Virus genome (UHGV): UHGV-0372619
Source of the DNA: a virus
DNA: 10,101 bases
Direction: 5' to 3' (one strand)
The notes below the pieces were generated by a model. It saw only the letters and a list, made by a program, of their open reading frames with translations, ran no database searches and had not been told where the DNA came from. Within the stretch, counting starts at the first letter, position 1, and every line of letters starts with the position of its first letter. Made by a program: the position numbers and the translations under genes. Shown piece after piece: positions 2,770 to 10,101 of this stretch.

Positions 2770-2797
2770 AGCCGCCTTTTGGGCGGCTTTGTTGTTT
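2770..2797 (+). terminator. Putative rho-independent terminator downstream of the lipoprotein gene
   Basis: Inverted repeat AGCCGCC-(loop)-GGCGGCT at 2770-2788 followed by a T-rich tract TTGTTGTTT, located between the lipoprotein stop (2745) and the J ribosome-binding site. Confidence 0.5.
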
Positions 2798-2811
2798 ATG
2801 GAGTGTGAGGA

Positions 2812-5800
2812 ATGGGTAAAGGTAGCAGTAAGGGGCATACCCCGCGCGAAGCGAAGGACAACCTGAAGTCCACGCAGCTGCTGAGTGTGATCGATGCCAT
2901 CAGCGAAGGGCCGGTTGAAGGTCCGGTGGATGGATTAAAAAGCGTGCTGCTGAACAGTACGCCGGTGCTGGACAGTGAGGGGAATACCAATATCTCCGGC
3001 GTCACGGTGGTGTTCCGGGCAGGTGAGCAGGAGCAGACACCGCCTGAGGGCTTTGAATCCTCCGGCTCCGAGACGGTGCTGGGTACGGAAGTGAAGTACG
3101 ACACGCCGATTACCCGGACCATCACGTCTGCAAACATCGACCGTCTGCGCTTTACCTTCGGTGTGCAGGCACTGGTGGAAACCACCTCAAAGGGGGACCG
3201 GAATCCGTCGGAAGTCCGCCTGCTGGTTCAGATACAACGTAACGGTGGCTGGGTGACGGAAAAAGACATCACCATTAAGGGCAAAACCACGTCGCAGTAT
3301 CTGGCCTCGGTGGTGGTGGATAACCTGCCGCCGCGCCCGTTTAATATCCGGATGCGCAGGATGACGCCGGACAGCACCACAGACCAGCTGCAGAACAAAA
3401 CGCTCTGGTCGTCATACACCGAAATCATCGATGTGAAACAGTGCTACCCGAACACGGTACTGGTCGGCGTGCAGGTGGACTCGGAGCAGTTCGGCAGCCA
3501 GCAGGTGAGCCGTAATTATCATCTGCGCGGGCGTATTCTGCAGGTGCCGTCGAACTATAACCCGCAGACGCGGCAATACAGCGGTATCTGGGACGGAACG
3601 TTTAAGCCAGCATACAGCAATAACATGGCCTGGTGTCTGTGGGATATGCTGACCCATCCGCGCTACGGCATGGGGAAACGTCTTGGTGCGGCGGATGTGG
3701 ATAAATGGGCGCTGTATGTCATCGGCCAGTACTGCGACCAGTCGGTGCCGGACGGCTTTGGCGGCACGGAGCCGCGCATCACCTGTAATGCCTGGCTGAC
3801 CACGCAGCGCAAGGCGTGGGATGTGCTCAGTGATTTCTGCTCGGCGATGCGCTGTATGCCGGTATGGAACGGGCAGACGCTGACGTTCGTGCAGGACCGA
3901 CCATCAGATAAGGTGTGGACCTATAACCGCAGTAATGTGGTGATGCCGGATGATGGCGCGCCGTTCCGCTACAGCTTCAGCGCCCTGAAGGACCGCCATA
4001 ATGCCGTTGAGGTGAACTGGATTGACCCGAACAACGGCTGGGAGACGGCGACAGAGCTTGTGGAGGATACGCAGGCCATTGCCCGTTACGGTCGTAACGT
4101 CACGAAGATGGATGCTTTTGGCTGTACCAGCCGGGGGCAGGCACACCGCGCCGGGCTGTGGCTGATTAAAACAGAACTGCTGGAAACGCAGACCGTGGAC
4201 TTCAGCGTGGGCGCAGAAGGGCTTCGCCATGTGCCGGGCGATGTCATTGAAATCTGTGATGATGACTATGCCGGTATCAGCATCGGCGGGCGCGTGCTGG
4301 CGGTAAACAGCCAGACCCGGACGCTGACGCTCGACCGTGAAATCACGCTGCCATCCTCCGGTACCACGCTGATAAGCCTGGTTGACGGAAGTGGTAATCC
4401 GGTCAGCGTGGAGGTTCAGTCCGTCACCGACGGACTTAAGGTGAAAGTGAACCGGGTTCCTGACGGCGTTGCAGAATACAGTGTGTGGGGGCTGAAGTTG
4501 CCGACGTTGCGTCAGCGCCTGTTCCGCTGTGTGAGTATCCGTGATAACGATGACGGCACGTATGCCATCACCGCCGTGCAGCATGTACCGGAAAAAGAAG
4601 CCATCGTGGATAACGGGGCGCACTTTGACGGCGGCCAGAGCGGCACGGTGAATGGTGTCACGCCGCCAGCGGTGCAGCACCTGACCGCCGAAGTCACCGC
4701 AGACAGCGGGGAATATCAGGTGCTGGCGCGCTGGGACACGCCGAAGGTGGTGAAGGGCGTGAGCTTCCTGCTCCGTCTGACCGTAACAGCGGATGACGGC
4801 AGTGAGCGGCTGGTCAGCACGGCCCGGACGACGGAAACCACATACCGCTTCACGCAACTGGCGCTGGGAAACTACAGGCTGACAGTCCGGGCGGCAAATG
4901 CCTGGGGGCAGCAGGGCGATCCGGCATCGGTATCGTTCCGGATTGCCGCACCGGCAGCACCGTCGCGGATTGAGCTGACGCCGGGCTATTTTCAGATAAC
5001 CGCAACGCCGCATCTTGCCGTTTATGATCCGACGGTACAGTTTGAGTTCTGGTTCTCGGAAAAGCGGATTGCGGATATCAGGCAGGTTGAAACCACAGCC
5101 CGCTATCTTGGCACGGCGCTGTACTGGATAGCCGCCAGTATCAATATCAAACCGGGCCATGATTATTATTTTTATATCCGTAGTGTGAACACTGTTGGCA
5201 AATCGGCATTTGTGGAGGCTGTCGGTCGGGCGAGCGATGATGCGGAAGGTTACCTGGATTTTTTCAAAGGCAAGATAACCGAATCCCATCTCGGCAAGGA
5301 GCTGCTGGAAAAAGTCGAGCTGACGGAGGATAACGCCAGCAGACTGGAGGAGTTTTCGAAAGAGTGGAAGGACGCCAACGATAAGTGGAATGCCATGTGG
5401 GCTGTCAAAATTGAGCAGACCAAAGACGGCAAACATTATGTCGCGGGTATTGGCCTCAGCATGGAGGACACGGAGGAAGGCAAACTGAGTCAGTTTCTGG
5501 TTGCCGCTAACCGTATCGCATTTATTGACCCGGCAAACGGGAATGAAACGCCGATGTTTGTGGCGCAGGGCAATCAGATATTCATGAACGACGTGTTCCT
5601 GAAGCGCCTGACGGCTCCCACCATTACCAGTGGTGGCAGTCCTCCGGTATTTTCCCTGACATCAGACGGAAAGCTGACCGCTAAAAATGCGGATATCAGT
5701 GGCAGTGTGAATGCGAACGCCGGGACGCTCAACAATGTCACGGTAAATGAAAACTGTACGATTAAGGGCATGCTGGAGGCGACTCAGGTCAGAGGTGACT

Positions 5801-6225
5801 TCGTTAAAGCTGTATCCAAATCATTTCCGAAACAGGCTGGTACGTGGGGTAACACGGAAACACCAAACGGGACGGTTACAGTCACCATCAGCGATGATCA
5901 TAACTTTGACCGTCAAATCATTATTCCGCCCATTATCTTTAACGGAATAGCGTATAGCGATCCGGGAAGTGGTAATAACCCGGGAGGTACAAGATACACG
6001 GGTTATGGTTTTGAAGTTCGCAAAAACGGTGTATTAATCGCATCCAGAGAAACTAAAGGGGCCATTCCCGGTAGCTACAGTGCGGTTATTGATATGCCGA
6101 GTGGCAGGGGAAGCGTCACTCTGGAGTTTAAGGTTTTCCATAAAGGCAATCAGTGGGCAGGTAATATCACCGACTGTACGGTGATTGTGACCAAAAAAGC
6201 CGCTTCCGGCATCAGTATTCGTTGA
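2812..6225 (+). CDS. J: Tail tip host-specificity protein J (central tail fibre), 1137 aa, with divergent C-terminal receptor-binding domain
   Basis: ORF 2812..6225 preceded by a GAGGA Shine-Dalgarno. The N-terminal [34 protein letters not shown]... and most of the length match lambda gpJ (1132 aa) as I recall it. The last ~150 aa (from about ...[34 protein letters not shown]... to ...[10 protein letters not shown]) diverge from the lambda C-terminus I remember. Confidence 0.92.
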
Positions 6226-6246
6226 AATTGTTATAACCCATATAAG

Positions 6247-6270
6247 GGCACCAGAAATGGTGCCTTTTTT
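6247..6270 (+). terminator. Putative rho-independent terminator between J and lom
   Basis: GGCACC-AGAAAT-GGTGCC stem-loop followed by TTTTTT, immediately after the J stop and upstream of the lom Shine-Dalgarno (GAGAGG). Confidence 0.5.
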
Positions 6271-6294
6271 ATTGCAGAAAAGCGAGAGGTAATT

Positions 6295-6894
6295 ATGCGT
6301 AAACTTTATGCCGCCATTTTGTCCGCAGCCATTTGTCTGGCCGTATCCGGTGCGCCTGCATGGGCATCTGAACATCAGTCCACGCTGAGCGCGGGGTATC
6401 TTCATGCCTCGACGAACGTTCCCGGCAGCGATGATCTTAACGGGATTAACGTGAAATACCGTTATGAGTTTACGGATACGCTGGGGCTGGTGACGTCATT
6501 CAGCTATGCAGGAGACAAGAATCGCCAGCTTACCCGTTACAGCGATACCCGCTGGCATGAAGATTCCGTGCGTAACCGCTGGTTCAGCGTGATGGTGGGG
6601 CCGTCTGTGCGCGTGAATGAATGGTTCAGCGCGTATGCGATGGCGGGTATGGCTTACAGCCGTGTGTCGACTTTCTCCGGAGATTATCTCCGCGTAACTG
6701 ACAACAAGGGGAAAACGCACGACGTGCTGACCGGAAGTGATGACGGTCGCCACAGCAACACGTCTCTGGCGTGGGGAGCTGGCGTGCAGTTTAACCCGAC
6801 CGAATCCGTGGCCATTGATATTGCTTATGAAGGCTCCGGCAGTGGCGACTGGCGCACTGACGGTTTCATCGTGGGTGTCGGTTATAAATTCTGA
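6295..6894 (+). CDS. lom: Outer-membrane beta-barrel protein Lom (Ail/Lom/PagC family), 199 aa
   Basis: ORF 6295..6894. Signal peptide [24 protein letters not shown], followed by alternating aromatic/hydrophobic beta-strand patterns and a C-terminal ...[10 protein letters not shown] ending in Phe, typical of 8-stranded outer-membrane barrels. Same position (between J and stf) and high similarity to lambda Lom as I recall it. Confidence 0.88.
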
Positions 6895-6920
6895 TTAGCC
6901 AGGTAACACAGTGTTATGAC

Positions 6921-6947
6921 AGCCCGCCGGTTCAGGCGGGCTTTTTT
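6921..6947 (+). terminator. Putative rho-independent terminator downstream of lom
   Basis: AGCCCGCC-GGTTCA-GGCGGGCT stem-loop followed by TTTTTT, 27 nt after the lom stop. Confidence 0.6.
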
Positions 6948-6958
6948 GTGGGGGGAAT

Positions 6959-9900
6959 ATGGCAGTAAAGATTTCAGGTGTACTGAAAGACGGCACAGGA
7001 AAACCGGTACAGAACTGCACAATCCAGCTGAAAGCAAAACGTAACAGCACCACGGTGGTGGTGAACACGCTGGCCTCAGAAAATCCGGATGAAGCCGGGC
7101 GTTACAGCATGGACGTTGAGTACGGTCAGTACAGCGTTATTCTGTTGGTGGAGGGATTCCCGCCGTCACATGCCGGGACCATCACCGTGTATGAAGATTC
7201 TCAACCCGGTACGCTGAATGATTTTCTCGGTGCCATGACGGAGGATGATGCCCGTCCGGAGGCATTGCGACGTTTTGAACTGATGGTGGAAGAGGTGGCG
7301 CGTAACGCGTCCGCAGTGGCACAGAACACGGCAGCCGCGAAGAAGTCAGCCGGCGATGCCGGCACATCTGCCCGTGAGGCGGCAACCCATGCGACTGATG
7401 CTGCAGGCTCAGCACGCGCAGCCAGCACGTCAGCCGGACAGGCCGCTTCGTCGGCTCAGTCAGCGTCTTCCAGCGCAGGAACGGCATCAACAAAGGCCAC
7501 TGAAGCGGAAAAAAGTGCTGCCGCTGCAGAGTCCTCAAAAAGCGCGGCAGCTACCAGTGCCAGTGCCGCGAAAACGTCAGAAACGAATGCTGCAGCGTCA
7601 CAACAATCAGCAGCCACTTCTGCATCCACCGCGACTACGAAAGCGTCAGAAGCTGCCACCTCAGCCCGGGATGCGTCGGCTTCAAAAGAGGCGGCAAAAT
7701 CATCAGAAACGAACGCATCCTCGAGCGCCAGCAGCGCAGCTTCCTCGGCAACGGCGGCAGCAAATTCCGCGAAGGCGGCAAAAACGTCCGAGACGAACGC
7801 CAGGTCTTCTGAGACGGCAGCGGGACAGAGCGCCTCAGCTGCGGCAGGCTCAAAAACAGCGGCTGCGTCGTCTGCCAGTGCCGCGTCAACAAGTGCCGGG
7901 CAGGCCTCAGCCAGTGCCATCGCCGCCGGAAAATCGGCAGAAAGCGCCGCATCATCCGCTTCAACAGCCACAACGAAGGCTGGCGAAGCCACTGAACAGG
8001 CCAGCGCAGCAGCGAGGTCAGCTTCCGCAGCGAAGACATCCGAAACGAACGCGAAAGCGTCGGAAACCAGCGCAGAATCCTCAAAAACGGCTGCCGCATC
8101 GTCCGCCAGTTCGGCGGCGTCATCGGCCTCATCGGCGTCTGCTTCAAAAGATGAGGCGACCAGACAGGCGTCAGCAGCGAAGGGCAGCGCCACGACGGCA
8201 TCCACGAAGGCAACAGAGGCTGCTGGCAGTGCGACGGCGGCAGCACAGAGCAAAAGTACGGCAGAATCCGCAGCAACGCGCGCTGAGACAGCGGCAAAAC
8301 GGGCAGAGGATATTGCATCCGCCGTGGCGCTTGAGGATGCGAGCACGACGAAAAAGGGGATAGTCCAGCTCAGTAGTGCAACCAACAGCACATCTGAAAC
8401 GCTTGCCGCGACACCGAAGGCAGTTAAAGCAGCGAATGACAATGCGAATGGCAGGGTACCATCTAACCGAAAAGTTAACGGGAAAGCACTGACTGCGGAT
8501 ATAACATTAACACCGAAAGATATTGGCACTTTAAATTCAGTAACGATCTCTTTCTCTGGCGGGGCAGGGTGGTTCAAACTGGCAACGGTTACCATGCCAC
8601 AAGCGAGTTCCATCGTTTACATCGCATTGATTGGTGGCGCTGGTTACAACGTCGGCTCCCCACAGCAGGCAGGCATTTCAGAACTGGTTCTACGAGCAGG
8701 CAATGGAAACCCCAAAGGGATTACCGGAGCTTTGTGGAAGCGTACAGCCGTCGGATTAACGAATTTCGCCTGGATCAACACATCCGGCGATACATATGAT
8801 ATTTACGTTGAGATTGGCAATTATGCGACGAGTGTAAATATCCATTGGGATTGTACTACAAATGCGTCAGTTTCTATTTATACCTCGCCAACATATTCAG
8901 CGAGTAAGCCTTCCAGCGTTACCGATGGTGTTGTTTATACGATGTATAGCTCACATCAGAAACCTACACCATCAGATATTGGAGCGCTGCCAACGACTGG
9001 AGGGACTATTTCAGGTCCGTTGTCTGTTACTGATGGGATCACCGGGGCACTGAAGGGGAACGCCGATACCGCGACGAAACTTGCGGCAGCCCCAAAAATT
9101 AACGGTGTTAAGTTTGATGGCTCGGCGGATATTAACCTCACGCCGGAAAATATTGGTGCATTTGCCCGACGTTCGACGGGAGCTTATGCGGATTCGGATG
9201 GAGCCGTTCCCTGGAATGCCGAATCAGGCGCTTACAATGTCACCCGCTCTGGCGACAGCTATATTCTGGTTAACTTCTATACCGGAGTCGGAAGTTGCCG
9301 GACCTTGCAGATGAAGGCGCATTACAGAAATGGTGGTCTGTTCTACCGTTCTTCAAGAGACGGTTATGGTTTTGAGGAAGACTGGGCAGAAGTTTATACC
9401 TCGAAAAATCTTCCACCAGAAAGCTACCCAGTAGGCGCACCAATCCCGTGGCCATCAGATACCGTTCCGTCTGGTTATGCCCTGATGCAGGGGCAGACTT
9501 TTGACAAATCTGCCTACCCAAAACTTGCAGCCGCTTATCCGTCAGGCGTGATCCCTGATATGCGTGGCTGGACGATTAAGGGCAAACCTGCCAGTGGTCG
9601 AGCCGTATTATCTCAGGAACAGGACGGCATTAAATCGCACACCCACAGCGCCAGCGCATCCAGTACGGATTTGGGGACGAAAAACACATCGTCGTTTGAT
9701 TACGGAACCAAATCCACGAATAACACCGGGGCGCATACCCATAGTATTAGCGGGACTGCAAATAGTGCCGGTGCGCACCAACACAAGAGTTCCGGTGCAT
9801 TTGGTGGCACGAACACGAGCATTTTCCCTAATGGTTATACCGCGATTTCAAATCTAAGCGCGGGGATTATGAGCACAACAAGCGGTAGTGGCCAGACTCG

Positions 9901-10101
9901 TAATGCAGGGAAGACATCATCAGATGGTGCTCATACCCACTCGCTGTCCGGCACTGCTGCAAGCGCAGGCGCACATGCACATACTGTCGGTATTGGTGCT
10001 CATACGCACTCCGTTGCGATTGGCTCACATGGACACACCATCACCGTTAACGCTGCTGGTAACGCGGAAAACACCGTCAAAAACATCGCATTTAACTATA
10101 T
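6959..10101 (+). CDS. stf: Side tail fibre protein Stf, 3'-truncated by the window end (at least 1047 codons); mosaic of lambda-like N-terminus, Ala/Ser-rich repeats, inserted central module and lambda/T4 gp37-like His-rich C-terminal region
   Basis: My own translation from ATG 6959 stays open to the window end, which is presumably why the ORF track lacks it (no in-window stop). N-terminal [26 protein letters not shown]... and C-terminal ...[71 protein letters not shown]...[13 protein letters not shown]...[26 protein letters not shown] match lambda Stf as I recall it. By that recollection the stop should lie only a few codons beyond the window. Confidence 0.85.
7330..8300 (+). repeat. Degenerate tandem Ala/Ser/Thr-rich repeats inside stf, with recurring A-K-T/S-S-E-T-N-A units
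   Basis: Recurring nucleotide motif GC[GA]AA[AG]AC[GA]TC[AC]GA[AG]AC[GA]AA[CT]GC at about 7568, 7694, 7788 and 8039, encoding AKTSETNA / AKSSETNA. The surrounding sequence is almost entirely A/S/T/E/K. This also creates the spurious Ala-rich reverse ORF and Arg-rich +1 ORF over the same span. Confidence 0.6.

Follow-up and report, generated by a model that had tools for sequence, protein, structure and literature searches.

The 3′ end of gene J in the virus genome UHGV-0372619 very probably is the receptor-binding allele of phage 434, known from the lambda h434 hybrids, and by homology with that phage it would dock on the porin OmpC. The tip of this J protein is a common, long-known host-range variant. 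The initial annotation of the window, i.e. of the whole stretch of 10,101 nucleotides that was analyzed, rightly recognized that the tip had been swapped, but it failed to recognize the textbook h434 variant.

Gene context and structure of J

The window is part of a lambda-like E. coli prophage, whose tail-tip end it covers, and contains the genes M (20–349), L (349–1047), K (between L and I), I (1693–2334), J, and lom as well as a long side tail fiber gene, which starts at position 6959 and runs off the window end. The closest complete genome was an E. coli chromosome, which was 99.0% identical across the window and carried a like annotation. Gene J (2812–6225, plus strand), coding for the tip attachment or central tail fiber protein, is an intact open reading frame of 1137 amino acids. 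This is also the length of the phage 434 J protein, whereas lambda J (NC_001416) has 1132 residues. The Pfam domains of J follow each other in the order FNIII-A_GpJ, Phage-tail_3, Ig_J, Ig_J_second, Phage_Tail_Tip, and Ig_GpJ_C.

Residues 1–964 (2812–5703, plus strand) form a conserved scaffold, whose amino acid sequence is 97.7% identical to that of lambda J and 99.2% identical to that of 434 J. When the protein was compared with lambda J in blocks of 50 residues, each block was 94–100% identical until residue 950, and identity then fell to 74%, 42%, 30%, and 35% in the blocks that follow. Expressed by region, the amino acid identity to lambda J was 97.7% for residues 1–964, 66.7% for residues 965–1000, and 38.9% for residues 1001–1137. 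Hence, the departure of the last ~150 residues from lambda J was borne out by alignment, and the C-terminal peptide quoted in the initial annotation is present in J exactly as written. A lambda-type tip was rejected as a candidate on the same identity of 38.9% over residues 1001–1137 and on the absence of any blastn similarity to lambda at 5782–6225.

The same break was found in the DNA. Identity to lambda was 92–99% until position 5711, 72% at 5712–5811, and about 42–57% thereafter, with dense mismatches from approximately position 5719. At the protein level, the divergence starts near residues 965–970 (nucleotides ~5705–5720). We refer to residues ~965–990 (5704–5781, plus strand), where identity drops, as the transition zone; it also is the putative 5′ recombination anchor of the tip. 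In a blastn comparison of the window with lambda, similarity ended at position 5781 and restarted at position 6767 within lom, without any high-scoring pair at 5782–6766. This tract without lambda DNA similarity (5782–6766, plus strand) comprises the tip, the intergenic region, and the 5′ three quarters of lom. The start that had been proposed for the divergent domain, position 5780, fits the DNA breakpoint at 5781/5782. Moreover, the breakpoint in J coincides with residue 964, the junction of functional lambda gpJ chimeras (PMC11338833).

The J end is also poorer in G and C than the rest of the gene, as the initial annotation had stated. The GC content of positions 5780–6225 is 0.471 (GC3 0.45), compared to 0.576 (GC3 0.695) for the first 2900 nucleotides of J, and it is lower than the minimum of 0.493 found in 2522 overlapping 446-nucleotide segments of the J scaffold (z = −3.0). 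Lambda's own J tip has a GC content of 0.556 and a GC3 of 0.624. However, the tips of 434, mEp332, and Ayreon, all of the 434 class, and of Chlobot, the one other non-lambda tip class whose GC content was examined, range from 0.47 to 0.48. Among the tips compared, the lambda tip is thus the GC outlier, and a low GC content is not peculiar to J in the window. The lower GC content of the tip would reflect a separate history of this part of the gene.

Family and fold of the tip domain

The receptor-binding domain of the 434/h434 class (5780–6225, plus strand) is supported by its Pfam family, its identity to 434, its fold, and its GC content. The profile PF12421 (Ig_GpJ_C), titled [quoted passage not shown] in Pfam, matched J residues 1001–1136 (nucleotides 5812–6219) with 90.9 bits at a cut-off of 26.2 and over profile positions 1–134 of 135. 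This domain lies at the extreme C-terminus, after Phage_Tail_Tip (PF09327, residues 845–972). In a phmmer search against the PDB, the last 170 residues of J aligned end to end with A8 gpJ (9wca, E = 7e-39) and with lambda gpJ (8xcj, E = 3e-29).

A monomeric AlphaFold2 model of the tip, which was based on an alignment of 21 sequences including 20 homologs from protein databases, reached a mean pLDDT of 78.3 (moderate confidence), whereas a single-sequence model of the last 190 residues was unusable (pLDDT 47). The four best matches of the tip model in a Foldseek search of the PDB were 8xck, 9wcb, 9wca, and 8xcj (E = 5e-16 to 1e-15, TM 0.62), which represent the lambda central fiber, closed and LamB-bound, and the A8 fiber, closed and OmpC-bound. 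The fifth match was weaker by ten orders of magnitude. The J end is thus an allelic homolog of the lambda receptor-binding domain, with the same fold. This Ig-like domain would form the very tip of a presumably trimeric central tail fiber. The capture of an unrelated foreign domain is ruled out by the PF12421 match and the gpJ-tip fold. Consequently, the earlier view of a receptor-binding domain replaced on a conserved scaffold holds for a 434-class tip insofar as an exchange of homologous PF12421 alleles is meant, and not the acquisition of an unrelated domain.

The tip belongs to the 434 class

Alignment of the complete J proteins identified the allele class. Compared to 434 J, the J protein of the window showed 99.2% amino acid identity over residues 1–964 and 94.2% over residues 965–1137, with no gaps and with 10 substitutions in the tip. 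In a three-way alignment, both proteins shared every gap against lambda J, and J of phage 434 and J of the hybrid lambda h434 imm21 both have 1137 residues. The indels in the tip are located at lambda residues 1011/12, 1043/44, 1078/79, and 1099–1114. [quoted passage not shown] The tip differs from lambda mainly at four loop regions that are prone to indels in natural J proteins.

At the DNA level, the window and 434 could be aligned continuously and colinearly from position 2781 to 7380 with an overall identity of 96.6%. The tip DNA was 92% identical to 434 and its flanks 98–99%, which makes the tip a sister allele within the 434 class. Codons that differ from 434 make up 20% of the tip (35 of 173) and 7% of the scaffold (71 of 964), so that divergence from 434 is about threefold higher in the tip than in the scaffold. 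Nonsynonymous changes account for 10 of the 35 differing codons in the tip, the other 25 being synonymous, versus 8 of the 71 in the scaffold. This pattern suggests that the tip may have been exchanged, or may have changed faster, even inside the 434 class.

Two other tip classes were considered. The window tip was only roughly 50–55% identical to A8, and the published DNA of 1A2 encodes the end ...ISDLLVVVMKKATAGITIS, which is unlike the end of J in the window. A peptide search of the supplements for tips of A8 or 1A2 equal to the window tip gave no match.

The region downstream of J is consistent with this assignment. J is followed by a terminator-like hairpin (6244–6267, plus strand), at a place equivalent to that of an annotated terminator in 434, and by lom (6295–6894, plus strand), which encodes an Ail/Lom outer-membrane protein (PF06316, E = 1e-119). 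Lom shares only 45% amino acid identity with lambda Lom, and positions 6226–6766, comprising the intergenic region and the 5′ part of lom, are 99.4% identical to 434 DNA. Hence, the 434-type allele of lom is linked to the 434-class tip.

Probable exchange of the tip as a cassette

Segments of the window were compared with eight phages to examine whether the tip behaves as a cassette. The last 170 residues of J were 100% identical in Ayreon, PhiR49_1, and O157 Stx1a and Stx2c phages, and the DNA from 5780 to 6225 was 100% identical in Perceval and Stx2c_PV98-693. In the latter phage, the 5′ part of J (2812–4300) was just 78% identical at the DNA level and the region from M to I 75%. Ayreon carries the tip, with 99.3% DNA identity, on a J protein of 1165 amino acids. 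The reverse situation was found with Chlobot, which belongs to another tip class: the 5′ part of J was 97% and lom 95% identical to the window, but no DNA similarity was detected by blastn between positions 5769 and 6186, as similarity stopped at 5768 and restarted at 6187. The last ~13 codons of J (6187–6225, plus strand) are thus conserved and would serve the cassette as its 3′ recombination anchor.

Since Stx2c_PV98-693 combines identical tip DNA with a 5′ part of J of only 78% identity, the tip appears to move as a cassette. Its proposed anchors are residues ~965–990 on the upstream side and the final ~13 codons of J on the downstream side. With lambda as the reference, the crossover downstream of the tip is located inside lom and not at the end of J. 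We propose that homologous recombination at conserved flanks, with one anchor near residues 964–990 and the other in the final ~13 codons of J or farther downstream in lom, would exchange tips among lambdoid phages, and that the tip allele would have come to sit on its lambda/434-type scaffold through such a cassette exchange.

Inferred receptor and alternative explanations

Phage 434 uses OmpC, and lambda with the 434 fiber gene binds OmpC instead of LamB (PMC3509688; PMC11101478); a citing paper attributes the OmpC use of phage 434 to Hantke 1978. For the natural tip classes A8 and 1A2, replacing only the J end, with the junction at residue 964 of lambda J, switched lambda particles from LamB to OmpC (PMC11338833), and the PDB entry 9wcb is a complex of A8 gpJ with OmpC. 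Because phage 434 uses OmpC, this porin is the inferred receptor of the window tip, which most likely binds OmpC rather than LamB. By homology with phage 434, the tip would dock on the trimeric porin. When lambda binds its receptor, the bottom loops of the tip spread, and a twist that runs up the fiber opens the tail (PMC11101478); binding of OmpC would likewise rearrange the fiber, open the tail tip, and lead to ejection of the DNA. The hosts given in phage records with 100% identical tips are E. coli K12 for Ayreon and ECOR13 for PhiR49_1.

The sequenced lambda h434 hybrid carries the 434 lom and side tail fiber genes in addition to J, and therefore the genetics summarized in reviews does not single out the last 170 residues for the 434 class. 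A receptor-prediction preprint from 2026 contains no receptor data on lambda- or 434-type J tips of temperate lambda-like phages, its gpJ analyses being concerned with Drexlerviridae and related phages.

A caveat for the assignment of OmpC is that the window tip differs from 434 at 10 residues, some of them near the loop hotspots. One substitution in J suffices for OmpC use by phage 21 and four for OmpF use by lambda (PMC11336670; PMC6646904). Such shifts of the porin range by few mutations, together with the finding that the natural OmpC binders A8 and 1A2 accept different OmpC variants (PMC11338833), could argue for a 434-class sub-allele whose specificity has been shifted or widened toward other OmpC variants or toward OmpC plus a porin such as OmpF. 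The number of amino acid differences from 434 (10 in 173 residues), the larger fraction of differing codons in the tip, and their higher nonsynonymous share would fit this explanation. On the other hand, most of the differing codons are synonymous (25 of 35), and Ayreon, whose tip is identical, has the same host as 434, E. coli K12, so that we consider a shifted or widened specificity improbable. The broader idea that the sub-allele shared by Ayreon, Perceval, and the O157 Stx1a and Stx2c phages may differ from 434 in its receptor range, be it by another subset of the natural OmpC variants or by an added or different porin, is unlikely; if it were true, an exchange inside the 434 class itself would amount to a host-range shift.

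The initial annotation had offered either a different outer-membrane receptor or a different LamB allele specificity. The former agrees with the 94% identity to an OmpC-using class, which makes a change of receptor the probable outcome. A tip that still binds LamB and is tuned to another LamB allele is conceivable insofar as the tips of the lambda and 434 types are homologs with a common fold, and as the lambdoid phage 21 natively uses LamB (PMC11336670). However, the window tip is only 39–46% identical to the LamB-binding lambda tip and has indels in all four hotspots, whereas it matches the OmpC-using 434 tip without a single indel, and lambda with the 434 fiber binds OmpC and not LamB, as outlined above. 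Tuning to a LamB allele is thus highly improbable. The probability is slighter still that no exchange took place and that the J end, selected by the host, evolved so rapidly that it diverged without any transfer, with the drop in GC content as a by-product. While the specificity region indeed evolves faster than other parts of J (PMC6646904), a divergence in place is hard to reconcile with a fall in DNA identity to lambda from >92% to about 50% within ~100 nucleotides, with a divergent tract that runs on into lom, and with a decrease of GC3 from 0.70 to 0.45. It also conflicts with the identical tip DNA of the Stx2c phage on a 5′ part of J with 78% identity and with the near-identical scaffold of Chlobot that bears a DNA-unrelated tip. 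Based on this mosaic pattern and the identity figures, both LamB-allele tuning and divergence in place were rejected in favor of an exchanged 434-class tip that would bind OmpC.

A lipoprotein gene between I and J

Genes I and J are separated by an insert of 450 bp with a GC content of 0.35, which contains one open reading frame (2407–2745) with a signal peptide and a lipobox. The encoded lipoprotein falls in a PHROG of unknown function and had no matches in Pfam and NCBIfam. None of the 50,697 phage records searched contained the DNA of the insert, which was found in 337 E. coli genomes and is annotated there as “hypothetical protein”. The only phage relative of the lipoprotein was a weak protein match (30% identity) from the tail-tip gene region of phage Fraca. 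Cor and Llp are lipoproteins that block the phage's own receptor, and a lipoprotein gene adjoining a receptor-binding gene may recall these proteins by analogy. This unannotated insert is more unusual than the J tip.

Prevalence of 434-class tips

Of 5426 complete E. coli genomes, 2111 (about 39%) contained DNA of the 434-class tip, and 721 E. coli genome records have the tip DNA at an identity of at least 99%. Lambda's own tip was found in 98 of the 5426 complete genomes, in all of them at an identity of at least 99%, and at least three of these genomes belong to laboratory strains. In this genome set, the 434-class tip thus outnumbers the LamB-binding lambda tip about twentyfold. In a tblastn search, the tip was found with at least 92% identity in 74 phage records, which include many O157 Stx1a, Stx2c, and Stx2a phages, cdtI, 2851, and mEp460. 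With respect to its tip class, the exception is the model phage lambda and not the prophage in the window.

Ever since the lambda h434 hybrids, J tips have been known to swap between LamB and OmpC specificity. Such swapping has been analyzed across 1207 J homologs, structures of related tips have been solved, and lambda particles have already been retargeted in this way. The present case illustrates that a host-range cassette is recognizable from the raw sequence.

Comparison with known systems

The closest known system is J of phage 434 and the lambda h434 allele (OL657226, OM418627), with which the window shares the length of 1137 amino acids, the indel pattern, and the 434-type lom. It differs from phage 434 by the ten substitutions in the specificity region and by the downstream side tail fiber gene, which departs from 434 after position ~7380. 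The receptor-binding domain of lambda gpJ (8xcj, 8xck, 8iyk) belongs to the same Pfam family and agrees with the window tip in its predicted fold and in its location, which is the end of the central-fiber beta-prism, but it shares only 39% identity with the window tip over residues 1001–1137, differs by the indels in four loop regions, and binds LamB, whereas the window tip would bind OmpC. The gpJ chimeras with A8 and 1A2 (Brodel et al., Nature 2024; 9wca, 9wcb) have the same fold and use OmpC but represent different tip classes. Two further systems were compared by description. The long-tailed Stx2a phage phi330 has a lambda-like central fiber and is experimentally OmpC-dependent, and its tip, for which an identity of 35–40% to those of 434 and lambda was reported (PMC12502783), sets it apart from the tip described here. 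Gifsy-1 also possesses a lambda-like central fiber that is experimentally OmpC-dependent, but this phage infects Salmonella, and its J protein additionally binds OmpX and BtuB (PMC12312913).

Distribution of J tip classes and exchange of lom

The J protein of the window carries a receptor-binding tip of the 434 class. Among 5426 complete E. coli genomes, 2111 contain a tip of this class. The LamB-binding tip of lambda occurred in only 98 of these genomes, in every case with at least 99% identity, and the three carriers among the matches listed, K-12 C3026, B C3029, and C43(DE3), are all laboratory strains.

The adjacent outer-membrane protein gene lom (6295-6894) is a 434-type allele. Phage 434 shares 99.4% DNA identity with the window over positions 6226-6766, which take in the 5' part of lom, whereas lambda Lom is only 45% identical to the Lom protein encoded here. 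Compared with lambda, the J tip and lom were exchanged jointly; the two sequences become similar again at position 6767, within lom. Phage Chlobot possesses the same type of lom allele behind a different J tip, and lom and tip are therefore separable. A second small mosaic patch lies inside J at 5310-5393, where DNA similarity to the window is lost in Ayreon, mEp332, and Chlobot (J proteins of 1160-1165 aa) but kept in lambda, 434, and Perceval.

Insert between tail genes I and J

Genes I and J are separated by a 450-bp insert (2331-2780) with a GC content of 0.35. Its sole product, encoded on the plus strand at 2407-2745, is a predicted lipoprotein of 112 aa with the N-terminus MNKTILFCTIIALTG followed by C, and a terminator-like hairpin (2769-2789) is located 3' of the ORF. 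The protein was assigned to phrog_914 (function unknown) and had no match in Pfam or NCBIfam. The insert is missing from lambda, 434, Perceval, Ayreon, mEp332, Chlobot, and Stx2c_PV98-693, and no DNA-level match was obtained among all INPHARED phage records; 337 of the 5426 E. coli genomes contain it. Its location adjoining the receptor-binding gene suggests that the insert is a moron. We speculate that its product is possibly a receptor-directed superinfection-exclusion lipoprotein, as are Cor and Llp.

Side tail fibre gene and downstream region

The side tail fibre ORF (6959-10101, plus strand) is intact over more than 1047 codons and continues past the window end; PGAP annotation marks the gene as partial in the nearest genome. 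A low-complexity Ala/Ser/Thr-rich stretch of approximately 400 residues accounts for a strong skew of A over T at ~7350-8400, and His-x-His repeats occur in the distal part. In E. coli strain 205, which is this nearest genome, a TIR-domain anti-phage reverse transcriptase gene (14146-15750) lies outside the window, downstream of the matching region and immediately past the tail fibre assembly gene, which is the usual slot for moron or defence genes.

Patches of the side tail fibre gene of the window are 85-87% identical to lambda stf/orf-314. Since the Stf protein of Ur-lambda binds OmpC, J and Stf of the window phage might target the same porin.
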